From assembly GCA_028534125.1 (NCBI GenBank), contig CM052816.1, positions 81,346,001 to 81,410,000 on the forward strand: 64,000 bases of DNA, written 5' to 3'. The DNA comes from Lama glama (Eukaryota). Of the stretch, positions 42,813 to 59,383 are shown one piece after another; within the stretch, counting starts at the first letter, position 1, and each line of letters opens with the position of its first letter. Below the pieces are notes generated by a model. It saw only the letters and a list, made by a program, of their open reading frames with translations, was not told where the DNA came from and searched no databases. The position numbers were made by a program, and so were the translations under genes.

Positions 42813-44643
42813 TAAGCCAGCCTTTTAAAGTTTTGGTTTGACTTTCCAAGTTGAGGTTTTTGCTTGATTGTGCAAATTGGTAGAACTGTTTTCTACTTTG
42901 TGTTTTTAGAGTTTATAGTGCTTCTCTTTGGCATGAAGCCGTCTTGCTAATTTATTTCAAAATATAAAATTGTAGCACATGTCCTCTTGTTTTTTCCCCA
43001 AGATTTGAATCATAAAAGAGAAGACAGTTATTCGGGACAAAAAGTGATTTTTTTTCTTTTAAACAAAGCCCATGTACAGTAAGCTTAAATTTTTAAAATT
43101 CATGAACCTCTTCCCTATTCAGTTGAATACATGTTTTTAATAGAATGTATTAACTGAAATAGAGAATCTTTCAAAATTTGAGTTTCCCCAGTTTTGTTGT
43201 GATTGCTTTTGATTTTCTACATGTTTTAATGATAGGAATTGCTTCTTGCTCTCTCTGCCCAGCACATTGTGGCAGTGTACAATTAATAGAATATCTCCTT
43301 TTGGTCCTACAGAAACAAACCTTTTGTTTTTTAAGTTTGAATTTTTTTTAATGTTATATAATATCTTGTCAGAATAGCAGACAGATTTAAAATAAAGATT
43401 CCTTGAATAATGCATAAAACTTACTTAGATATTTGAAATCCAAGCGTTGACATTTCATTGATCACATGTATTTGATAGTAATGTCAGAATAAATAGTACC
43501 TGATCACAGCAGAGCAACTGATAACAAAAGCTTAATTATTAAATTTAAGCTCTGACAATTCTGGCACTTACTGTCGTTTGCTTTATATTACCATCATTCC
43601 AGACGTGAAGTTTCTATGAATGAGTCTTTTAAGTCATGAGAATTGTCATTGTGTCTCTGCTTCTTACCCCTCTGTGGAGGCTGCTAGGGCAATGAAGGGG
43701 AAGAAGGTTTGAGGACCCTGAAAAAAGTATGTAATTTACAGGAAACATCTTGGTCCCAAATTGTGGTGCTTAGTGAAACTACAAAGCAGGAAATATTATA
43801 TCCTAACTAAATAATTGATAATTTATTCAGTAAGTTAAGCAATTAAACTAAAAGCAGAATACTCTTTCCAAATCAGTCTGTACTTGTATAAGTGGATAAG
43901 CAAGAGAAATAGCATTAATTCTCATAATCATTGTCATAGTTGTAAAGTTTATATAATACTTCCTATTTACCAGGCACTGTTTTAAGTACTTTGTATAGTT
44001 AATTCATTTATTCTTCCAGTAATTCTTCACATTATTAGTAAAGTAGCAGAGCTAGGATTTGAACCTAGATACTATGCTATAAATGCACCATGTAATTTCT
44101 GTAGTCTTCATTTGTTCATATTAACTGGGGTTTATTACATGTGTACTCAATTGCAATGAATCCTGGTTTTTCTTCTGTTGATCAGGGCTTTCTGCTCCCT
44201 GATAAAAATGTTGATCTGTTGATTTCACAGACATAGTACAGTGGGAATGGTTGAATTATGATTGCTGTTAGTTTCAGGTATCTATTTTAGTATCACTCAA
44301 ATTTTGCAAATATTTGGGTACTTAACCGCCAGATGCTGTTAGAAAAGTACAGTAATAAATAGGCAGTGTTTCTTTTATCCAGGAATTCATCATCTAAGAG
44401 GGACACAAGCATATGCAAATAACTCATACGATACAAATAGTGGTAAACATTAGTTCAATAACGAATTCTAAAAGGAAAGAAGAGCAAGAGATTTATAATA
44501 CTTGTACATGTTACAAGGCTTCTTGGGGGATCTAGTTCTTATAAAATGGTTAAGTTAGTGAGAAAATGAAAGAGCCATAATGAAACTGCCTTATTTGATA
44601 ATGTAAAAGTTCCATCTAATTTCTTGTACTTTTCATTATATAG

Positions 44644-44785
44644 GTTATAAGTCCTGAGAAGTATGACATAAAATGTGCTGTTTCTGAAGCGGCAATAATT
44701 TTGAATTCATGTGTGGAACCCAAAATGCAAGTCACTATCACCCTGACATCTCCAATTATTCGAGAAGAGAACATGAGGGAAGGAG
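44644..44785 (+). CDS. ZFR: ZFR exon 15 ([11 protein letters not shown]...[11 protein letters not shown])
   Basis: tatag acceptor, GAG|GTTGGA donor (weak). Confidence 0.94.
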
Positions 44786-46924
44786 GTTGGAAAGCCATTA
44801 CACATTCTACTTTTTATTAGCTTTTTTCCCCCCATTTACCTACTCTTTAAGATGGCATTAAGCCCTAGAAGGCAACATGCTGGCATTACATATGAATTGG
44901 ATAGATTTGACTTATATAGTAACCAGTTCTACCTAAGATCATTTCCCAGATCTTTCATTGTCTTTTTTGTAATGTACTTTTATATAAAATAACTCATGGT
45001 ATTACTGATTTTCTTAATTTTTTTTTCTTTTCTTGCTAACCTCAGATTTCTGGAAAAAAAAGTTCAAAATTGTTAACAGCATAGTTGACCCATGAAAAAA
45101 TTAAAGAAATATTGCCAGTAAGGGGCCACAAATTTAACTTTTAAGAATCTCTTATTCTTGCCTTATGTTAAAAAAAGACAAGAGAATTTCATAAATAAAA
45201 TTGGTTAAATATCCATAACAGCTTAAGAGACATTGACGTGTATGTAATCATGGATTTGGCTTGTCCTGAGGTAATAAATATTTCTAGTTCTCTGAGGTTG
45301 CTCTTTGGTTTGGAGCACTTTCATAAATGCAGAGCATCCTAATGCACATAGATTTGGGCATCTGACCCAGTATTATAGTAGAGATACTGAAAAATAAATG
45401 GTGTCAGCATAGTTAGTAAGTTATAGTACAAGGTTTTTAAACTTACTTCACAATTATAGAATATGAAATCTGCTGGTGCCAGCAATGTTGCTTTAGGGAC
45501 TGTTCTGTAACATTTTCAAAGCTTCAAAAGCTTTTAAGCAAAAAAGCATGGTCAGTGTCTGCCGTATGTTGGTTCTGTTGTTTTATGGGTCAGATAAAAT
45601 TTACTTTGTTTCCTTTCATGTTGTTTTTGTACATCTTGATTTGTTGAGTATAGAATTACAGTCTACACTAATATTTCTTTGTGATAAGGATAGAGGAAAA
45701 GAGAATACTTAAATTAATTTTGTCTCAAATAACATAAGTAGGCTCTCAATTACTGTCCCTTTAAATTTGTTTTTTTACGACAAATCAGGTTTTGTTTTTT
45801 TTTTAATGCACTGGGCTTTCCACAACCCAGGAAAAGAACATTTTTATTAAAAATGTCATCATTGGGAGATGTGTCTAACCTTGCATACTATGTATATATG
45901 CCATATCAGGTCTTGTATGTTGTATAACATCTTAAGAATAAATGAGGTTTATGTAAAGGATCTTTTATATGAGCATGAGTTTCCACTCAAGGTCTGCCCA
46001 TGGATATTGCTGGAAAAACAGCTCCTGAGTCAATCTGGTCAATTTATATGCAGCATATGACTCCTAGGATTTGAAAAAGAAATCTTAGAAATTACGTTAA
46101 AAATAACAGTTGCTGTACCTTTACTATAAAATTATACTCATATAACCATTTAACTTTATTTCAGAGCATATTTTGTCCAATTATATTTAGACTTAATTAA
46201 ATTTGTGTGGTATCAAGTCATGTTATTATGTTGCAAAAGTTTGAAGTTAATAGTATGTATTTGTAGTGGTCTTCAATAACCTATCCCTTCTAAAGGAAAC
46301 AAAATTACATTTTTGTCTGACCCAGATTTGAGTTAGAATTATTATTCTGAATTTCATGTATATTATGGTGAGAGAAATGATGAGTTCAAAATTGAAAGAT
46401 TTTACTTGAAGACACTGAGCTGAAAAGTTGGATGTGCAAAAAATGTAGAAACATTGATAGTGTTCCTTGCTGCAGATATCTGCAGTAAACCATGTCTTTA
46501 GCTTCATTGTGAAGATTGCTGCAGAATAACGGTATGTATTCTCTCTCACTGCAGCTCCGAATGCTCTGTGTCTTAAAATCATTTAAAGCCTATAGCTTGC
46601 TTTGGGGAGTTAGTAAAGGAGTAAGGAAGGCTTTGCCGGAAGAGCACTTGTAAATCATGAGACTGGAGACTTGCTCATGGTTGTCATAGCCTCTTAATGT
46701 GTAATGGTCCTGCTTAATACCAAAAATTATTTAAAGGAGATGATTAAATTGCCCAAATAACTGTTAAACACATGACAGATCTATTTTATGGTACTGTGTT
46801 TGACAGTTAAAACATTAAACGTTTAATTGACTTGAAGCTTGAAATGTTCAAAATGCTCTAACCCTTGCTACAGAATCTCTTCTGCAGCAAGTCAAGTATT
46901 GTGTGTGTTTTTTTCCACCTGTAG

Positions 46925-47014
46925 CTTATCAGGCCCGGTCCAAAGCCTTCTAGCAGAGGGAATTGATTCCTGTCAGGGGTTGCTGCCAAGACATCGGAAG
47001 GATTTTTGACCAAG
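46925..47014 (+). other. Candidate poison (premature-stop) cassette exon of ZFR
   Basis: ttttttccacctgtag acceptor; reading from exon 15 gives AYQARSKAF then TAG at 46951-46953; putative weak donor AAG|GTTTTC; extensive complementarity to the exon 16 region; boundaries uncertain. Confidence 0.6.
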
Positions 47015-49283
47015 GTTTTCAAAAGCTCAGTGTCACATCTGCCATTTGATAAAGGAGGGACTTTGGATACAGAGTCTGGCATTTGTCTTTTGTGTGGCTG
47101 TTTTGTTCGTTTTGTCTTTGTCTCTTCTAGAATTGAGCAGTGTTCACACTAGTTTTTAAATTGTTGGGTGGATTATACATTTTACATAACCGTGTTAATT
47201 TAAATTAATATATTCCCATTAACTTTTAATCATAAAATAGTGTGGACACAGCATGTCTTCTAACTGGTGATTAACCCCTTAAAATTTATGAAATATGTTT
47301 TTGTAGGGTAAGAATTTGCTTTTTTTTCTTTTAATAAATTAACTGATTTTTGTTAACTGGGTACTAGGAAACAAGGATTATTTTAGTACAGTATATCTAA
47401 GGGGTTAATCCACTTGAAATATAAAATGGGTGCAAAAATCCACACTCAGGATTGGACAGAAATTTCCCACTTATAGCTCTTAATTTTTTTTTAATTGCAA
47501 TAGGTGTCTTGGCATCTTTGAATAAATTCTAAAGTTGTGAATGCTTGTGTAGAAAAAGAAATTATTTCTTACATATTGGAGGAAATTAAAACGTTGTGAA
47601 TTAATATTAGAAATTCAGAAACACTTTTTTTAGAAAGAGATTGCACATTGTCACCTATTTGCATTCTAGCTTTAGCAAATGATTAAATTAATAAGGGACA
47701 TGGAAAGTGTTCTTCAGCATGTTCTGTAGCCCTGCTTTGGGGAGTGGTTTTTTGTTGTTTCTTTTTTCTTTTCTTTCTTCTTTAATAATTAGCTGTGCTT
47801 TCCTATGTTCTTTTCCTCTTCTCAGAATAGCCCATTTAGTTCAGTATATTTCTGGATTAAATAGTTGGTCTTGCAGGGTTTGAGATTATTTATTAATTTT
47901 AAAAATTACTGACTTGATAGTTTCTTTTTAGTACCCAGATTCCTCTTTCAGCGTTCATTTTCAGAATGCCACACAGTCTTCTTTGATTATCTGTAAATCT
48001 CCCTTCTAATACGTCTTCTGAAAATCTGTGCCATCTGATTATTTAAGGAGTAAGAACTGAGAATAGAAAGCCCAGACAAGGGATAGAATTCTTCATTGCT
48101 TTTAAAATATGCTTTTTTGTTTGTCATCTACTCAAAATAAGGATGAGTATCTTTTAAGATTTCTGAATGCTCATGTAAAAATGTATTATCAAATTAACTT
48201 GCCAAGAGTTACAATAGTACTCTTAAAATAAAATCATCTTTAATATTTTTTCATCATATATTTCTTCCCTCATATTCATTTGTTATCATCAGTGATTTAT
48301 TAAATTATATTCTAAATGCCCCATAATTTTGGTGCTTTTTGTCTGGAAGACTGTTAAATTTAATAGATTACTTGCCTGGTATATATGCAAATTTGATTAG
48401 CAATTTTTATACATGTGTTTAGATGAATATAAAACTGGCCTCCAACTAATTTTATCAATGTAAACTACTTATCCTGATTTAGGTTCAGATTTTCTTAAAT
48501 TTTATATAGCTTATTTATGTTTTAATACAGTAATCTGATTAAAATTGGTTATAACTGACTTTAAAACTTGAAAGAATCTACATATTTAAAATCAAATCAT
48601 TCTGCTTACTGCATCTTTTCTATTTCTGTACTTACTCTGTTTAACCATGCTAGTTCCTATTGCCCCTTTCTACTTCATTCATTATTTTTCTCCAATTATT
48701 CTTTGAAATACTTTATGGGAATTTGGAATTCTAAAGGGCATTTTGTATTCCATTACAGCTAAAATTCTCTTGTGGAAGAGAAAGCTTTGAACTCTTCAAA
48801 ATGCCTGTTTTTTGGCTCTTTTTTTTTTCTATGATTATTACTGCATTAATCATCCCATATTTATCATTAGTTCTTTGCTATATTAGCTCCAGAATAACCT
48901 ATGATCATTTAAAATACTGAACAGACTCAGTAGGTTATTGTACATTCTCATTTATTAAAGTGGATTTTTGTGTTCCCTCTTGTCTTGTGGTCTCCATGCT
49001 GGTGCACTGTGTCCAGTATTCCTTCCTTTTGATTTTATTTTGGTGGGTAGGGTTTATATTTGCAGAAATTATTTATTACATCTCTAAATTAAAGAGTTTA
49101 ATTCTCCTCTTGATCTTCATATTGGATTATGTAAATTTGTTGAAAATAACTCCCTGGGTACTTTAAAGTGCTGATAAACTCTCAAATGGCTCATGTGACA
49201 CTGATGCTACTTTAAGGAAGTGTCTTGCTTACCTGGTCAAACACCCATTCCTCACTGCATTTTGCCAATTCAATCCATTTTAG

Positions 49284-49381
49284 ATGTAACCTCGGGTATG
49301 GTGAAAGACCCACCGGACGTCTTGGACAGGCAAAAATGCCTTGACGCTCTGGCTGCTCTACGCCACGCTAAGTGGTTCCAG
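49284..49381 (+). CDS. ZFR: ZFR exon 16 ([36 protein letters not shown])
   Basis: tttag acceptor, CAG|GTTCGG donor. Confidence 0.96.
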
Positions 49382-50173
49382 GTTCGGAACATCATTTTAC
49401 TTTTTTCTTGTAGCCTTATGAGAGAGTAGTTCAGTACAACATGTTTAACTGTGTTTAAACATTTCAAAAGATTGCCCAAGCAATACTATTTAAATTAAAT
49501 ATCAGAAAATATGTTGACATAGAAAGCTGGGTATAAAGATCTGCATATTGCAGTTACTATTAATTTGATGATAAACTCAGGTTTGGGGGGTGTTTTGTAG
49601 TTCGGGTTTTTTTATTTTTATTTTTAGTGACTATATTTAAAGTTGACTTGTTTAGGAACATCACATGTTTTTGTATATATATTATATTCCATAAGGCTGC
49701 AGATAAACTTTGCTTTAAATAATGAAATATGTGTTTAAAGCTTTCTGTATAGTTTTAAGATTTTTCCCCCCTCTTTCTCTAAGTTAATAAGTGTAGGGAA
49801 TGAAAGGTGAGGAAGCAGCTGTTTGGTTTAGTGACTTTGCAGTCATGCAAAGGCACAGAAGGGAAACCAAACAGATTTCCTTAACCTTTCAGTCCCTAGA
49901 CAAACTTTTTAGCTCTTTACTTTTTCTTTTATTTCTGATGTAGGCAGACTTTTTTTTAAGTTTACTGTTTTGAATGAACACAGGTCAAGGTTCACAGGGG
50001 ATCAAGAACAATTATTCTTGTATAATCTGTTTACTTTGACCTAAAATATCAGCTTTTAAATACTAACCTTGGTATAAAATATTGCTGTAAATGGCAGCTC
50101 ATTGAATCCAATTTTAACTGTGGTTATTTTGTTTTATTTTTATCTGAGCTTCCATTGAACAGTGGTATTTTAA

Positions 50174-50353
<180 letters not shown>

Positions 50354-50693
50354 TAACTGAACAGTGTGAAAAATAAACATTAAGGAAATATTTCTGCAGC
50401 TTTCTTATAGCCTCATCTTGCATTTAGTTATCAACTTCATTTTCATTTCCTAAACATAGTTTCTTTCCTCTTCTAGTGAAGCACTGGGGGGGTCTTAGAG
50501 TGTTTTAATTTTCTGAGACTTGCACTCGGTCTTCTTTTTGTATTTTTCTCTCCCCCAGCCCTTTTTTTTTTTAAACTCTTCTCACAATATTTATTACTTT
50601 AAAAAAAATAGGTACAATTATACATAAAGGTACAAAGAAAACTAAAAATAATTACTAATCTCCCTATGTAAGTTTTTTTTTTGACTTTTTTAA

Positions 50694-50789
50694 TTAATTT
50701 ATTTTTTTTTTTATTTTTTTAGAGAGTTAGAGAATTCAGGTTTATTACGCCAATAGGCCCAGAGGAGTTAACACTCCAAGCTCTGAACC
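50694..50789 (-). mobile_element. Retroposed polyadenylated fragment resembling an ERV LTR R region
   Basis: Minus strand: ...CTTGGAGTGTTAACTCCTCTGGGCC...AATAAA, 20 nt, then poly(A); TSD GACTTTTTT(T)AA. Confidence 0.65.
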
Positions 50790-51862
50790 GACTTTTTTTA
50801 AAATGTATAAGTTTAGGAATTTTAAAAATTCAGAAATATACATTCAAAAATGCATAAGTTTAGAAAATTCAAATAATGCAAAAAGGCAAAAAATAAGAAA
50901 CAAAAGCCTTCTTATTTAAAGGCAAGTTGTCTTGACGCAGTTTATGATTTCTTCCAGGAACAGAAATGCATGTGTATGCATCATGTATGTTCCTGTTTTT
51001 CATTTATGTACAAATATCTCTTTGATGTTGAGTTACTTGGTTCCTAAATAGCAAGAATTCAGATAGAGAGGGATTCATTCAAAAATATAACTGAACCTAC
51101 TGATTCTAGAGTTGGGTTAGGGAGAGTTAAATAGCCAGGGTTGTCTAATTCTTTTTTTTAACACAGGAGTGTGTCATGCTGTTTACTCTGACATGATATT
51201 TTCTTCTTTGTTACGTTAGACATATCAATCTTCTCTTAGTTTACTAAGTAATTTTGAATCAGGAATGGAAATAGAACTTTATCAGATAATTTTGCAAGGT
51301 TTATTGATGTGAATGTATAGTATTTCTTCAAACTGTTGCATTTTGTGATTGCGTTTTTCTTAATAAAATACATCTTGGAGTGTTTGGAGAGCTGCATTAA
51401 CTACGAGGTGTTCCCTTTGTATGGATATGCCGTATTTTATTTAAATGGTGTCCATTTAATGGACATTTGGGTTGTTTGCAGTCTTTTGCTCACACATGCC
51501 TTTTTCTAGAGTTTTTTTCCCCCTAGTCAAATTATATTTTCTGCAAATGTGTGTATATACATGTTTATTTTTAATATATAGCAAAGTTCCTGGAAGGATA
51601 TATCCCAACTTAAAACAGTGGTTGTCTCTGAGGAGTGAAAGGAAGAGATGGTTAGGTTAGAGATCTGTAATGTTTGGGTTTTAGTAGAATAAAATATACA
51701 TATATTACTTGTATAATTAGAAATAGATTTAAAAATCATAAATGGGCTAAAGATGGATCCAGTATATGTTTTTCCAGATCAGTTGCCAATTAATACCATT
51801 TTATTTAGTAGTGATATTTGTTCTCCCAACCCCCAGTTTGAAATGTCACCATTATCATAAAC

Positions 51863-51942
51863 CAGTGATTCTCAACCAGTGTCAGTTTTGCCCTTCAGGG
51901 ACATTTGGCGGTGTTTGAAGATATTTTCAGTTGTCAAAACTG
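51863..51942. mobile_element. Partial MER20, opposite orientation to 17633-17853
   Basis: cagtgattctcaacc...cagggacatttggc...ttgtcaaaactg. Confidence 0.7.
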
Positions 51943-54618
51943 TTCATCAGTAGCTCCAAGAATGAGAAACACTGTAATAATCCAAAGTTCCTTTTTTTGT
52001 GAGCCTGTTTCTACAGTCTTCATTCCTCAGTCTTTGTTCTTCTCTAGTGCTAAAACTCTTAATTATTAAAACTTCATAGTGTGTTTCAAAATGCTGATTG
52101 TCCTCTTCATCACATTTCTCCCTTTCCATTCTGTGCCACTCACTATAAACATGATGTTACAGCGAAGAATTTTGTTTGGATTTTCTTGTATGTTTCTTTT
52201 TCAAGTTAAATGAACTTGATAACCATTTTGTTCAGTTTCTCTAAAGTTCTCTTGATGATTTTTAAGTAGTACATTGAATTAATAGATAATTTGTGGACTG
52301 TCATCACTTGTATAATACTGACTCTTTAGCTAAGAGTATAGGATATCCTATTTATTGGAATTAATTTTATGTGCTTATTTAGGTTTGAATAGGTTCTGTT
52401 TTGTTTATGTTTTGTTGATGATAGTTTGTACCTAAGTATGTATCTTTCAGAGTTTTTTAAATTCCATTTTCTGGTTATTATTTATATATAGTAAATACAT
52501 TAAATTTTGTAGCCCACCACCTGACTTCATTCCTTTATTTGTACCAGTTTTTTTCATGTGATTCTTCTGGGTTTTCTAGTCTTAGAGCCACATCTGCAAA
52601 TGATATTTTGCCTCCTTTCCAATATTTTGCCTTCTTTCTCTTCTCTAATTTAATTGATTCTTCTACAATAAATGTATAATAAAAGAAACAATACTTTACA
52701 TGCGTGTTATATTCTGCCTGCATTGAAATTACTTCTAGTATGTAAAGTATATTAAGTATGGTGGGTAAAAGCCTTTTATTTGAGGTATTTACTTCTTTGT
52801 AATATTAGAAGTATCATTCTTCTCTTAGTTACTAAGTTTAGACCAGAAATGAAAATTGAATTTTATCAGATAATTTTTCAAGGTTTATTGACATGAGTAT
52901 ATAGTTTTCCTTCAACCTGTTTATACTCTACATTTACAAATAGATTTCCTCATATTGAGCTACCTTTCATTCTAGAGATGATTCTCATATATATAAGGAT
53001 AATCTTAATGAACTGGTAGTCTATTTAGGAATTTTGCAGTGACGTAAAACAAATTTTTGTAGTTTTATTTTTGTCCTCTGTGAATCAATAGCGTGTGTAC
53101 TTTGTAAAAATAATTTTGAAGCTTTATTTCTCTAAACTCTGAAACCATTTTTAGTAACATCAAAACTATCTGTTTTTTGATAATTTATTAAATTCATGTA
53201 ACATCATCAGTTCCCAGTCCCTTTTAAAGGGGGTAGCTCTTTCTCAGTTTCTTTTATTGTGATTAATTGTTTGTTTAATTTTTCTTTCCCCTGGGATTGA
53301 TTTTGGCAACTTATCTTTTCCCAGAAAAATCAACCAATTCAGCCAGATACTTAGATTTTTATTTAATACAAGTTTTGCTCTCTTAGGGTCTTTTAAATAC
53401 CCACTTTTTTTGCTTTTAATTCTTTAATTGATTGAATAAACTAGCCAATAATAGCAGTTGCCATATAGGAGCAAAATGACATAGGGGTGTTTCAGTATTT
53501 ATTTATGATCAGAGTTCACTGAATTATTAATAGGTTTTAAATGTAAAAATTTATGGATGTTATATAACTTTAAATTTTTAAAGTGTATAAAAATATAAGC
53601 ATTGTACACTATTATTCTACTTCCTTCTTCCTTCAACTTCAGTCCCTTCAGCCGAGGTGCCCTGTTGTAGTAAGTGTAAGCATCAGTGCTTTTTTGAGAA
53701 TGGACTCTCAGGCCACTGCTGGCAAATCTTGGAGTCTGGAGATCCAGCAATGCAGATGGCCTTGCTCTGCCCTGTACCTTACATTTCCTCTTTATCAGAG
53801 AGAGCCATCAACTTCAAGGGGCACTCTCCTTTGAGGGTGCAGAACTCTAAGAACTGAGTGGAAAAGAGGAAGATGTACAGGTAAAAGGAATTGGAGGAGC
53901 ATGGGCCATAGCAGGGTAATGATGGGAGAATCAAGGAGGGCAAAGCTGCTGGCCAGTCTTTGAAATCATGTACATGTAACATAAAATACACCAGTATTTT
54001 GGTAGCTTAAAGCACACCAAAATGTCAGTTTTTTGACATCTAAAAATCTCTGTTAGTATTTTATTCTTTAGTCAGTGGTTTATTTCATCTCCTCCCAACC
54101 CCTCCTGCCAAGAGCCAGCTCCTTGGATTTAGCTACCAGATCTATTAACTTTATATTTTCATTGGGTTTATTTTCGTTCTTTTAGAAACGTCTTGAATTG
54201 TATACTTGTTTCATTCACTCTTTAATTATATAGAGATTTTAAAGCTGTAATTTAAGGCTGGACACAGGTTTTTGGCTATATATGTAGTATTTCCTCTTTA
54301 TTTTCTGCACAATCTGAAACTCATTTTAATGTTATCTTTAAGCCAAGAGTAGTTTTGAGGGAATCTTTAAATTCTACATGACTGGAGAAGGGTTGCTTTT
54401 GTTTTTGTAAATAACTTCTAGTTTTTGTAGCATGTAATCCAATAAATATATTCCACTACTTGTAATTTTTGGAATTTAAAGTTTTCTTTGTGGTTTAATA
54501 TGTACAACTAAAACTATGAGCAAAATATGTTCTCAACAAGGTACGTGTATATATAGCATGTAATATATACCTCTTCAACTTCATCCTTTTGTTCATATCT
54601 CCCATTTCCTTTTCTTTA

Positions 54619-57600
54619 ACTTTTTTTAATTGTTATTGTCATTTTACAATGTTGTGTCAAATTCCAGTGTAGAGAAAATTTTTTCAGTTATACGTGAACA
54701 TACATACATTCATTGTCACATTCTCTTTTGCTCTGAGCCACCATAAGATCCTGTGTATATTTCCCTGTGCTACACAGTACAATCTTGTTTATCTATTCTA
54801 CATTTTGAAATTCCATTTCCACCCACCACCCCCCCCGGTCCCCCTGGCAACCACAAGTTTGTATTCTATGTCTATGAGTCTGTTTCTGTTTTGTATTTAT
54901 GGTTTTTTGTTTTTTGTGTTTTAGATTCTGCATATGAGCGATCTCATATGGTATTTTTCTTTTCTTTCTGGCTGACTTCACTTAGAATGACATTCTCCAG
55001 TAACATCCATGTTGCTGCAAATGGCGTTACGTTGTCGGTTTTTATGGCTGAATACTATTCCATTGTATAAATATACCACTTCTTCTTTATCCAGTCATCT
55101 GTTGATGGACATTTAGGCTGTTTCCATGTCTTGGCTATTGTAAATAGTGCTGCTATGAACATCAGGGTGCAGGTGTCATCCTGAAGTAGGGTTCTTCTGG
55201 ATATATGCCCAGGAGCAGGATTCCTGGGTCATATGGTAAGTATTCCTAGTCTTTTGAGGAATCTCCATACTGTTTTCCACAGTGGCTGCACCAGACTGCA
55301 TTCCCACCAGCAGTGTAGGAGGATTTCCTTTTCTCCACAGCCTCTCCAGCATTTGTCGTTTGTGGACTTTTGAATGATGGCCATTCTGACTGGTGTGAGG
55401 TGATACCTCATTGTAGTTTTAACTTGCATTTCTCTGATAATTAGTGATACTGAGCATTTTGTCTTGTGCCTATTGATCATTTGTATTTCTTCCTTGCATA
55501 ATTGCTTGTTTAGGTCTTCTGCCCATTTTTGTATTGGGTTTATTTTTTTCTTATTATGTCGTATGAGCTGCTTATATATTCTGGAGATCAAGGCTTTGTC
55601 AGTTTCATTTGCAAAACTTTTCTCCCATTCTGTAGATTGTCTTTTTGTTTTACTTCTGGTTTCCTTTGCTGTGCAGAAGCTTGTAAGTTTAATTAGGTCC
55701 CATTTGTTTATTCCTGCTTTTATTTCTATTTCTTGGGTAGACTGCCCTAGGAGAACATTTTTGAGATGTATGTCAGGTAATGTTTTACCTATATTTTCTT
55801 CTAGGAGGTTTATTGTATCTTGTCTCATGTTTAAGTTTTTGATCCATTTTGAGTTGATTTTTGTGTATGATGTAAGGGAGTGTTCTAGCTTCATTGATTT
55901 ACATGCTACTGTCCAGTTTCCCCAACACCATTTGCTGAAGAGACTGTCTTTATTCCACTGTATATTCTTGCCTCCTTTGTCGAAGATTAGTTGACCAAAA
56001 GTTTGTGGGTTCATTTCTGGGCTCTCTGTTCTGTTCCATTGGTCCATATGTCTGTTTTTGTACCAATACCATGCTGTCTTGATGACTGTAGTATTGTCTG
56101 AAGTCTGGGAGAGTTATTCCTCCAGCCTCTTTCTTTCTCTTCAGTAATGCTTTGGCAATTCTAGGTCTTTTGTGGTTCCATATAAATTTTATTATGATTT
56201 TGTTCTAGTTCTATGAAATATGTCCTGGGTTATTTGATAAGGATTGCATTAAATCTATAGATTGCCTTGGGCAGTATGACCATTTTAACAATATTGGTTC
56301 TTCCAATCCAGGAGCATGGGATATCTTTCCATTTTTTTAAGTCTTCTTTAATTTCCTTAATCAGTGTTTTATAGTTTTCCGTGTATAAGTCTTCCACCTC
56401 CTTAGTTAGATTTATTCCTAGGTATTTTATTACTTTGGGTGCTATTTTAAAGGGAATTGTTTCTTTACCTTCTTTTTCTGTTGATTCATTGTTAGTGTAA
56501 AGAAATGCAACTGATTTTTGAACGTTAGTCTTGTAACCTGCTACCTTGCTGAATTCTTCAATTATTTCTAGTAGTTTTTGTCTGGACCTTTTAGGGTTTT
56601 CTAGTATCATGCCATCTGCATATAGTGACACTTTTACCTCTTCTTTTCCGGTTTGGATCCCTTTTATTTCTGTCTCTTGCCTGACTGCTGTGGCTAGGAC
56701 TTCCAAGACTATGTTGAATAGGAGTGGTGATAGTGGGCAGCCTTGTCTTGTCCCAGATTTTAGTGGGAAGCTTTTGAGTTTTTCACCGTTGAGTACTATG
56801 CTGGCTGTAGGTTTGTCATATATAGCTTTTATTATGTTGAGATATGTTCCTTCTGTACCCACTTTGATGAGAGTTTTTATCATAAATGGGTGTTGAATTT
56901 TATCAGAAGCTTTTTCTGCATCTATTGAGATGATCATGTGGTTTTTGTCCTTTCTCTTGTTGATGTGATGTACACTTTGATTTGCATATATTGAATCATC
57001 CTTGTGTCCCTGGGATGAACCCCACTTGATCATGATGTATAATCTTTTTTATGTGCTGTTGGATTCTATTTGCTGGTATTTTGGTAAGGATTTTTGCATC
57101 TCTGTTCATCAGTGATAATGGTCTGTACTTCTCTTTTTTGGTGGTGTCTTTGCCTGGTTTTGGTATCAGGGTGATGGTAGTTTCATAGAATGAGTTTGGG
57201 AGTACTCCCTCTTTTTCAGTCCTCTGGAAGAGTTTGAGGACTGGTATGAGTTCTTTGTATGTTTGGTAGAATTCCCCAGTGAAGCCGTCCGGTCCTGGAC
57301 TTTTATTTGTAGGGAGGTTTTTAATTGCTATTTCTATTTCATTTCTAGTGATCGGTTTGTTCAAGTGGTCAGTTTCTTCTTGATTCAGTCTTGGTGGACT
57401 GTATGTTTCTAGAAACTTGTCCATCTCCTCTAGGTTATCCATTTTGGTTCCATATAGTTTTTCATAATACTCTCATATGATATTCTGTATTTCTATGTTA
57501 TTTGTTGTGATTTCTCCATTTTCCTTTCTTATTTTGCTTATTTGTGCTGTCTCTTTTTTCTTCTTCATGAGTTTGGCCAGAGGTTTGTCGATTTTATTTA

Positions 57601-59383
57601 CTCTTTCAGAATTCCAGCTTTTGGCTTGATTGATTTTTTTCTATTGTTTTTTAAACCNNNNNNNNNNNNNNNNNNNNNNNNNNNNNNNNNNNNNNNNNNN
57701 NNNNNNNNNNNNNNNNNNNNNNNNNNNNNNNNNNNNNNNNNNNNNNNNNNNNNNNNNTTTTCTATTGTTTTTTAAACCTCTATTTTATTTCCTCCCTGAT
57801 GTTTATTATTTCCTTCCTTCTGCTGACTTTTGAGTGTTTTTGCTCTTTTTCTAGTTCTTTTAGCTGGTGGGTTAGATTGTTTATTTGAGATTGTTCTTCT
57901 TTTTTTGAGAAAGGCCTGTATCGCTATAAACCTCCCTCTTAGCACTGCCTTTGGTGCATCCCATAAGTTTTGTGTGGTTGTGTTTTCATTTTCATTTGTC
58001 TCAAGATATTTTTTAATTTCAACTTTGATTTCATCATTGACCCATTGGTTTTTTTTAATAGCATGTTTAATCTCCATGCTTTCCTTTTTTTCTCCTTTTG
58101 TTTCTCTGTAGTTGATTTCTAGTTTCATGGCATTGTGGTCAGTAAATATGCTTGAGGTACTTCTTATCTTCTTAAAATTGTTGAGGCTTTTTTTGTGCCC
58201 GAGTACATGATCAATCCTAGAAAATGTTCCATGTGCACTTGAAAAGAATGTATATCCTATTTTGGGGGGGTGTAATGCTCTGAAAATATCCACCAAATCT
58301 AATTTTTCTATTGTATCATTTAATTTCTCTGTTGTCTTATTTTCTGTCTGGAAGATCTATCTAGTGATGTTAATGTGATGTTAAAATCTCCAACAATGAT
58401 TGTATTCCCATCAATTTCCCCTTTATCTCTGTTAGTAGTTGTTTTATGTACTTAGGTGCTCCTATATTGGGTGCATATATATTGATTGTAATATCCTCAT
58501 CATGTATTATTCCTTTAATCATTATAAAATGTCCTTCTTTATCTTTCTTTATGGCCCTTGTTTTAAAATCTGTTTTGTCTGAAATCAGTACTGCTACACC
58601 TGCTTTTTTGGCTTTTCCATTTGCATGGAATATCTCTTTCCATCCTTTCACTCTCAATCTATATGTGTCCTTCTCCCTAAAGTGGGTCTCTTGTGTGCAG
58701 CATATTGAAGGTTCTTGCTTTATTATCCAGTCTGCCACTCTGTGTCTTTTGACTGGAGCATTTAGTCCTTTAACATTTACAGTAATTAATGATAGATGAG
58801 TGTTTATTGCCATTTTGAACTTACTATTTCAGTTGATTTGGTATTTCCTCTTTGTTCCTTTCTTTTTCTTTTTGTGGTTTGGTAATTTTCCTTTGTATTA
58901 TCTTGAATTTTATTTAATTTTTGTGACTCACTTGTAAGTTTTTGGCTTGTGATTCCCTATTTTGTAAGTCTATTAACCTGTTACTATAACTGTTTGTACT
59001 AAACAGATAGTAATATAATCTCAAACCATCCTACTGAGAACAAAAAATTTAAAAAAGAAAGAAAAAAAATACTCTATTTTCTTGCTTCCCTCTCATGCTC
59101 TTAATGATTCAGATGTCTTCTTTTACAATTTTTTGTTTATTCTACTTGGAATTCATGGTAGTTATCACCTTCCAGTTATGAGTTTCTCATTTTTGTAGCA
59201 TCCTGCTTCTTTTCTATTTATAGTAGACCTGTCAATATTTCTTTTAGCATGGGTTTAGTGTTGCTAAACTCTTTTAGTTTTTGCTTGTCTGTGAAGTTAT
59301 TTATCTCTCCTTCTATTCTAAAGGATAGCCTTGCTGGATAGAGTGTCCTAGGCTGCATCTTTTTTTCATTCAGGACTTTGAAT
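54619..59383 (-). mobile_element. 5'-truncated LINE-1 (end of ORF1 region, frameshifted ORF2 EN/RT/C-terminus, 3'UTR)
   Basis: ORFs 58813-58370 and 58296-57772 (endonuclease), 57442-56996, 57033-56230 ([19 protein letters not shown] in place of YADD), 56047-55229 (HCWWEC); TSD TCCCATTTCCTTT(T)CTTTA at 54600-54618 and 59384-59401. Confidence 0.97.
57658..57757. other. Assembly gap (100 N), probably a false gap
   Basis: TTTTCTATTGTTTTTTAAACC is repeated on both sides. Confidence 0.95.

Follow-up and report, generated by a model that had tools for sequence, protein, structure and literature searches.

ZFR/Zn72D is a double-stranded RNA (dsRNA)-binding regulator of splicing fidelity, mutually exclusive exons, and adenosine-to-inosine (A-to-I) editing. 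In this study, we analyzed a 64,000-nucleotide stretch of the llama genome (Lama glama, contig CM052816.1, positions 81,346,001 to 81,410,000 of the forward strand; hereafter, the window), in which a gene of the ZFR type carries a long-range RNA helix. The helix joins the donor end of a candidate poison exon, a cassette with a premature termination codon (PTC), to the intron just upstream of the next constitutive exon. Poison exons are known from other splicing regulators, and the ultraconserved ones of the SR proteins and TRA2B were reportedly described in 2007 by Lareau and by Ni. To our knowledge, the conservation of ultraconserved exons does not reach invertebrates. Pairing of the donor of an alternative exon is also known from the MAPT exon 10 stem-loop and SMN2 TSL2, which are local hairpins of a few tens of nucleotides.

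In BRD2 and BRD3, base pairing of two distant conserved stretches, intronic or exonic, within the pre-mRNA is linked to a poison exon, exon 3b (PMC10789245; Kalmykova et al. 2021, PMC8052449). Conserved intronic structures that conceal a branch site are coupled to poison-exon choice (PMC11162794), and a term search of the accessible text of that study found no mention of ZFR or Zn72D. The ultraconserved poison exons of SR proteins and TRA2B place a PTC-bearing cassette within extreme conservation in a splicing-regulator gene (PMC11791180), and ultraconservation is defined by comparing human, mouse, and rat (bioRxiv 10.1101/2022.06.15.495552). [quoted passage not shown] In Drosophila, Zn72D-RA is listed as a target isoform of nonsense-mediated decay (NMD) (Hansen et al. 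2009, PMC2689934).

In a full-text literature search, whose scope did not extend to bioRxiv supplements and three large PCCR tables, no account emerged of a long-range helix at a ZFR/Zn72D poison exon or of ZFR autoregulation, and the literature searched gave no description of how the level of ZFR/Zn72D is set. ZFR was absent from the main text and from five of the eight supplementary files of Kalmykova et al. 2021 (PMC8052449), with the three large catalogue files outside the scope. The pair described below may sit unremarked in PCCR catalogues.

Results

A long-range helix in the llama ZFR-type gene

Plus-strand open reading frame (ORF) pieces of the window matched the Pfam families zf-met and zf-C2H2_jaz twice, followed by DZF_N and DZF_C, and the only solved structures related by sequence were the DZF domains of ILF3. 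With its zf-met/JAZ zinc fingers and DZF_N/DZF_C domains, the host is, on domain content, a ZFR-type gene, an assignment to the type and not to ZFR versus ZFR2. The exon numbers 15 and 16 are labels taken from the original prediction, which had been made from the letters of the window and had listed seven pairings between the cassette region and the region of exon 16. All seven were found in place when the sequence was read.

The long-range helix in ZFR pre-mRNA is very probably real and selected. Helices 1 and 2 form an inverted repeat with 23-nt arms (47027-47049 and 49182-49204) that are 91% complementary and 2132 nt apart, and this repeat ranked first among the 43 inverted pairs in 46500-49800. 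When the whole window was scanned (seed 11, arms at most 5 kb apart), it was the only one of 25 inverted pairs to reach at least 91%; the others reached at most 87% and were mostly A/T runs. The duplex was also far more stable than shuffled sequence, a comparison that had been proposed with the original prediction. Cofolding of 47000-47070 with 49158-49245 gave a difference in free energy (ddG) of -32.1 kcal/mol, compared with -6.4±3.3 for 300 dinucleotide shuffles of the right arm (best shuffle, -19.8; z = -7.8). The minimum free energy (MFE) cofold showed helix 1 (9 bp), a 2x2 loop, and helix 2 (12 bp), then AGC paired with GCT past a 1-nt bulge (U), and then helix 3 with a bulged A; about 44 intermolecular pairs were formed, helices 1 and 2 included. 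Folding of the whole 2497-nt span gave pair probabilities of 0.96-1.0 in helix 2; those of helix 1 were 0.78-1.0, and those of the helix 3 core were 0.49-1.0. The right strand lies 2.2 kb downstream of the left strand and ends 37 nt short of exon 16. Helix 3 forms the core of a pair of short conserved boxes, GGAAGGATTTTTGA(C/T)CA (the L-box) and TG(G/A)TCAAACAC(C/T)C (the R-box).

The earlier view that neither arm is a repeat was borne out, since the left arm matched only itself in the 2.35-Gb genome, within the reach of the search. A scan of 44000-52000 at Rfam gathering scores found nothing on the duplex arms, mir-1898 being the sole match. Genome-wide counts of the boxes were near those of a reversed-pattern control, and the other exact copies were on different contigs, including the lone exact copy of the R-box. 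Within one mismatch, no second co-located pair of L- and R-boxes was found in the same genome.

Covariation and conservation among vertebrates

Homologues were collected by scanning metagenome contigs with a degenerate pattern of the exon peptide, independently of the arms, and 55 loci were obtained. Two of these (L014 and L039) come from vertebrates and are orthologous. The alignment of L014 to the window covers 44617-50348, in blocks that are 68-89% identical, and the longest exact matches of this locus are 173 nt (49231-49403), comprising the R-box, exon 16, and the first 22 intron bases, and 58 nt (46963-47020). The intron of the more distant L039 is far shorter, with 570 nt from box to box compared with 2234 nt in the window, and its longest exact matches are 46, 43, and 27 nt. 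The cassette donor nevertheless matched at 27 of 27 positions in L039, and 203 nt around exon 16 were 91.6% identical. Exon 16 itself aligned with three differences across the exon, its synonymous sites being nearly frozen in L039.

MAFFT alignments of the three vertebrates (window, L014, and L039) showed that the arms are conserved and covarying. Helix 3 was invariant, with 11 of 11 pairs in all three, whereas five both-sided changes were found in helices 1 and 2. In helix 2, which kept 11 of 12 pairs in L014 and 10 of 12 in L039, the pair 47038/49193 changed from U-A to C-G in both orthologues, 47033/49198 changed from U-A to C-G in L039, and 47030/49201 is G-C in the window, U·U in L014, and U-A in L039. 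Helix 1 kept 8 of 9 pairs in L014 and 7 of 9 in L039, with one G-C to A-U change and one G-C to U-A change in L039. The cofold ddG of the L and R regions was -39.5 in the window, -28.3 in L014, and -19.7 in L039.

Two further helices of the original prediction did not hold up. Helix 4, on the inner side of the duplex, was rejected because its pair probability was 0.0 and it did not align beyond one tetrapod (L014 retained some of its pairs, and in L039 no alignment of it was obtained). Helix 5, proposed between the cassette body and exon 16, was unsupported, with pair probabilities of about 0.13-0.52 for its parts 5a and 5b and no covariation; 4 of 7 and 6 of 8 pairs were kept in L039 without compensation, and the comparison with L014 is uninformative because the sequences are identical there. 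What stands of the earlier reading is a long-range duplex in which the donor end of the PTC-bearing cassette is joined to sequence that lies just upstream of where exon 16 has its branch point and 3' splice site.

An ancient core shared across animals

Many invertebrate contigs carry (A/C)TG(G/A)TCAAACAC(C/T)C upstream of the homologous exon, and all those with this R-box carry GGAAGGATTTTTGA(C/T)CA 141-1658 nt further upstream. The 55 loci were sorted into 21 with both boxes, 5 with the intron but without the boxes, 21 without the intron (complementary DNA (cDNA)-like or intron lost), and 8 with an upstream region too short or unclear. Both boxes were thus present in 21 of 26 intron-bearing loci, including the two vertebrates, termite-like insects, and marine invertebrates. 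Insects belong to the box-bearing set because the flanking exon peptide of L020 is 98% identical to the Zootermopsis nevadensis ZFR-like protein (95% to Cryptotermes and Periplaneta). The best named relative of L002 is a nemertean (66%), and no named relative was found for L003. The five loci without the boxes have conserved flanks of their own, ...ATGTTCGAGTGTAG directly before the exon and GTGTGCATGTGCTCTAGA after it.

The core consists of GGAAGG with CC-A-TTCC, AUU facing CAC, and TTTGACCA with TGGTCAAA; read as RNA, GGAAGG pairs with CC-UUCC, an invariant internal loop of AUU and CAC follows, and UUUGACCA then pairs with UGGUCAAA. The 15 distinct rows among 22 show G-C, G-C, A·C, U-A, and U·C before UUUGACCA and UGGUCAAA, and the A·C opposition was kept in 14 of the 15 and the U·C in all 15. 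Compensatory changes were found within the core: G-C became A-U in the L028 group, C-G became U-A independently in the L003 and L028 groups, and A-U became U-A in L012 and L048. Pair statistics were computed on a MAFFT alignment of 15 full spans, which did not include the window, L014, and L054 because of their length. The paired cells amounted to 91.6%, compared with 85.7±1.1% in shuffled alignments (0/500 as high), five pairs showed both-sided change (1/500 shuffles as high), and the covariation score was 0.134 versus 0.061 (0/500 as high). Registers slid by 1-3 columns either way were 27-53% paired. The MFE structure of the full span, which ranged from 404 to 2803 nt, kept 6-8 of 8 core pairs in 13 of 13 representatives. 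Judged by its distribution among these sequences, the core helix predates the protostome-deuterostome split.

A search of wider contigs for the donor box as a 21-mer gave two genome-contig matches (L057 and L058) and no viral ones; because both match only the 21-mer and lie in bacterial records, they were set aside as chance matches.

Lineage-specific extensions of the helix

With the core excluded, 13 representatives were compared over 70 nt on the 3' side of the L-box and over 70 nt on the 5' side of the R-box. The results showed that these flanks differ between lineages yet complement their own partners. The mean cofold ddG was -18.4 with the own partner, compared with -7.5±4.7 with the partners of other species and -7.2±4.1 when only unrelated pairs were counted. 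None of 20000 permutations of the partners was as low as the true assignment (0/20000), and duplexfold ranks were alike. One strong cross-species pair was found, L039 with L002 (-29.9). Helices 1 and 2 are, on these comparisons, this mammal's version of a lineage-specific extension, and helix 3 is the ancient core, a distinction that the original prediction had missed.

These data bear on whether the complementarity arose by chance, is an old inverted repeat or transposon, or belongs to a DNA-level element such as an enhancer. The folding energies, which do not separate the sense strand from the antisense strand, would fit such an origin. However, the margin over shuffled sequence, the single copy in the genome, the compensatory changes and partner-specific flanks across phyla, the lack of an Rfam family, and the lack of a repeat family in the search of the llama's own genome make it extremely unlikely.

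The candidate poison cassette

The left strand of the helix coincides with the end of a candidate cassette (Table 1). The cassette is bounded by tgtag/C at 46924/46925 and AAG/GT at 47014/47015 (a slash marks the splice boundary), with a strong polypyrimidine tract upstream. Its inclusion reads ...MREGAYQARSKAF followed by a stop, an in-frame TAG at 46951-46953. An alternative 3' splice site, cctgtcag/G at 46976/46977, is more widely conserved and gives a 38-nt form, in which a frameshift leads to a stop at the start of exon 16. The premature stop lies upstream of later junctions, as the exons at 49284 and 50246 follow. The distal AG and its polypyrimidine tract were kept in L014, and the proximal AG was kept in both L014 and L039.

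Traces of the same arrangement were found in invertebrates. In six invertebrate loci (L002, L042, L029, L045, L012, and L048), the homologous block bears, close to its 5' end, the motif AAGCCTTCT that is common to the window and L014. In the first four of these, a conserved block extends from just after a variable polypyrimidine tract and AG up to the L-box, and several lineages have GT donors 0-17 nt after the L-box, inside the extension helices. These features suggest that the cassette is ancient. Among the 21 intron-less loci, no inclusion of the cassette was seen in the cDNA-like contigs. From its splice signals and their conservation, we infer that the cassette is spliced in as an exon.

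Table 1. Coordinates of the helix, the candidate cassette, and neighboring features in the window
Feature	Position	Strand	Remarks
Upstream constitutive exon (exon 15), ORF-supported part	44644..44785	+	From the ORF list; in-frame join to 49284
Candidate poison cassette	46925..47014	+	90 nt; 3' splice site ...ttccacctgtag/C; weak donor AAG/GTTTTC
Motif AAAGCCTTCTAG holding the in-frame TAG	46942..46953	+	Recurrence across loci
L-box GGAAGGATTTTTGACCA, left arm of the ancient core helix	46996..47012	+	In 21 of 55 loci and in the window
Helix 3, left arm TTTGACCAAGGT	47005..47016	+	Covers the cassette donor G/GT (47014/47015-16); 11 pairs identical in the window, L014, and L039
Left arms: AGC, helix 2 (47027-47038), helix 1 (47041-47049)	47023..47049	+	Vertebrate-specific extension; both-sided compensatory changes in L014 and L039
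Right arms: helix 1 (49182-49190), helix 2 (49193-49204), GCT (49206-49208)	49182..49208	+	
Helix 3, right arm ACCTGGTCAAA (49231-49241), R-box TGGTCAAACACCC (49234-49246), outer ATTCC	49231..49250	+	
Putative branch point CTCAC (49251-49255), polypyrimidine tract, 3' splice site AG (49282-49283)	49251..49283	+	From the sequence
Constitutive exon 16	49284..49381	+	98 nt; end of DZF_N (Pfam); donor CAG/GTTCGG
Box 3 TGTAGCCTTATG	49409..49420	+	27 nt 3' of the exon 16 donor; left arm of the second pair
Box 4 CATAAGGCTGCA	49690..49701	+	Partner of box 3

A second conserved pair after exon 16

A further pair of complementary boxes, box 3 and box 4, was found after exon 16 in 14 loci including the window (11 distinct rows), with termite-like and marine invertebrate contigs among them. 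In all rows, 11 of 12 core columns were paired, and the only changes were one-sided or to wobble pairs. At position 1, vertebrates have G-C, and the remaining rows have G·G or U·G. Box 4 was still present in 4 of the 5 loci without the L- and R-boxes.

As another possibility, the helix may mainly control the 98-nt exon 16 or detention of its flanking introns, the cassette being incidental or no exon at all. Together with box 3 and box 4, the helix would frame exon 16 and its splice sites and could tune access to the branch point or donor, leading to exon skipping, with a frameshift, or to intron retention. Consistent with this, the second deeply conserved pair begins 27 nt after the exon donor, the exon 16 donor GTTCGG is also weak, the block identical to L014 spans the exon, and the synonymous sites of the exon hardly change in L039. 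Such control would, however, leave unexplained why the left box lies at the end of a block with a conserved AG, a polypyrimidine tract, and the motif AAGCCTTCT in vertebrates and several invertebrates, and why the pairing covers a GT donor. We therefore consider it improbable relative to donor occlusion at the cassette.

Several side observations concern these boxes. Box 3 resembles a branch point with a polypyrimidine tract and YAG. Box 4 (CATAAGGCTGCAGA, 49690-49701) looks like CTCAAG/GCTAGAGC (50238-50251), which is the junction at the 3' splice site of the following exon, and the cassette motif (46945-46950) has the hexamer AGCCTT in common with box 3; in view of this likeness and the shared hexamer (6-7-nt matches), alternative pairings are conceivable. 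In L037, the two exons are fused and the box-bearing intron is lost, and the next intron still opens with a box 3-like element. A third complementary pair lies upstream of the cassette (45586-45617 and 46292-46324), in which GGGTCAGA faces TCTGACCC and CTTTGTTTCCTTT faces AAAGGAAACAAA. Its arms fall in blocks conserved in L014, and duplexfold gave -38.2 in the window and -40.6 in L014.

Exons and splice sites of the host gene

A peptide homologous to exon 15 was found in 42 of the 55 loci by tblastn. The exon 15 donor is GAG/GTTGGA after 44785, in phase 1, and the exon after exon 16 is 50246-50341. Exon 16, given as 100 nt in the original prediction, is 98 nt long (49284-49381). Its putative branch point, CTCAC, was called from the consensus only and lies directly 3' of the R-box. 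The three consecutive donors at 44786, 47015, and 49382 (GTTGGA, GTTTTC, and GTTCGG) all have U at +3, which is unusual, and this U was kept in L014 and L039 for the donors at 47015 and 49382. An Rfam mir-1898 precursor was found on the plus strand at 49982-50042, in the intron after exon 16 (90.1 bits against a gathering score of 78). On the minus strand, 55229-58828 contains long ORFs with reverse-transcriptase-like translations, broken by an N run, and looks like a long interspersed nuclear element (LINE) insertion in a downstream intron.

Discussion

We propose that the helix probably controls unproductive splicing and does so by keeping the cassette donor concealed beside the branch point downstream. 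Its left strand comprises the final ~20 nt of the 90-nt stop-bearing cassette together with the weak 5' splice site of the cassette (AAG/GUUUUC), and its right strand lies directly 5' of the putative branch point of exon 16. Once formed, the helix would hide the cassette donor from U1, the cassette would be skipped, and productive mRNA would result; if the helix were open or not yet formed, the cassette would be spliced in and the transcript would be directed to NMD. Because the right strand is transcribed after the donor, there would be a time window for cassette inclusion. The helix would thereby set the output of ZFR. The binding of dsRNA by ZFR and its DZF partners makes it plausible that the helix serves as an input to auto- or cross-regulation, and these proteins might sense it; the original prediction had named ZFR, ILF3, STRBP, or ADAR as what would set poison-exon inclusion through the duplex.

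The same helix could also act with the opposite sign. By looping out the 2.2-kb intron, it would bring the donor to the branch point and 3' splice site and speed splicing of the cassette to exon 16, so that the helix, possibly stabilized by ZFR-ILF2, would raise the NMD isoform in a negative feedback. The position of the right arm, 37 nt from the exon and directly 5' of the putative branch point, would suit such bridging, the box geometry holds in 13 of 13 representatives, and the increase of ZFR mRNA upon ILF2 knockdown is expected if DZF complexes favor the unproductive isoform. On the other hand, the donor GU is itself paired in helix 3 and the putative donors of invertebrates lie inside the extension helices, and U1 cannot bind a paired donor. 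Bridging would also bring little gain where the boxes are only 141-500 nt apart, and ZFR favors NMD-insensitive isoforms of other ultraconserved-exon genes, according to Haque et al. (bioRxiv 10.1101/2022.06.15.495552). Promotion of cassette splicing is thus unlikely in our judgment.

Occlusion of the cassette donor may belong to a larger arrangement. As a tentative extension, less likely to be true than not, we consider a dsRNA module older than the protostome-deuterostome split, in which one helix buries the poison donor, a second (box 3 and box 4) follows, both frame exon 16, and the loop of AUU and CAC is read by the gene's own product as ZFR-ILF2.

Several observations weigh against donor occlusion by a selected helix or against parts of it. 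The cassette donor GUUUUC is very weak, and one lineage (L015, L033, L040, L049, and L056) keeps the intron and lacks both boxes. L012 and L048 have a C·A mismatch in the core, and own-flank complementarity is weak in 2 of 13 representatives (L054, -3.2; L048, -6.5). Many of the sequences are close relatives of one another. The sense strand folded more stably than the antisense strand in 7 of 13 representatives (-28.0 vs -27.4), that is, both fold equally well, so energy does not show which strand is selected. Moreover, 9 of 15 core pairs never vary, and sequence-specific recognition, not pairing alone, may therefore drive the conservation. Finally, a dsRNA-binding protein that stabilized a donor-occluding helix would produce positive and not homeostatic feedback.

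The invariant columns, together with the A·C and U·C oppositions kept in nearly every distinct row, are what would be expected if the duplex served mainly as a platform for proteins or a substrate of A-to-I editing (for ADAR, ILF3, or ZFR), with these oppositions as recognition or editing features and any effect on splicing secondary. ZFR/Zn72D is linked to editing and binds dsRNA. Even so, a role outside splicing would hardly account for the location of the duplex in every lineage, at a donor and beside a branch point, and we regard this function as a very unlikely main role.

If donor occlusion is correct, a helix shared from mammals to insects in ZFR pre-mRNA would provide a concrete, mutable handle on the control of the ZFR level. 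It would also rank among the few examples of an intronic RNA structure, as opposed to a protein motif, that can be traced across Bilateria. The helix offers a natural, sequence-defined dsRNA ligand for asking what the zinc fingers of ZFR recognize, and it gives a rationale for the ultraconservation around exon 16. Should the two-helix module read by ZFR-ILF2 prove true, it would be among the oldest conserved animal intronic RNA structures and autoregulatory circuits known to us.

The structures of BRD2 and BRD3 arose independently in vertebrate paralogues (PMC10789245), whereas in the ZFR case a single core helix occurs in vertebrates, insects, and other invertebrates, and the gene that carries it encodes a dsRNA-binding protein. 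The ultraconserved poison exons of splicing regulators differ in that, here, the conserved feature is a helix, whose 17-nt and 13-nt boxes are common across Bilateria, and the longest exact matches (173 nt with L014 and 46 nt with L039) compare with the at least 200 nt identical among human, mouse, and rat that define an ultraconserved element. As in MAPT exon 10 and SMN2 TSL2, the donor of an alternative exon is paired and U1 access would set inclusion, but the partner of the ZFR donor is 141-2540 nt away, beside the downstream branch point. The structures of PMC11162794 are also conserved, intronic, and placed by a branch site, but they conceal it, whereas in ZFR it is the donor that is paired, with the putative branch point immediately beyond the helix. 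The ZFR helix adds one more to the long-range structures at poison exons, and what makes it unusual is how old it is and which gene hosts it.

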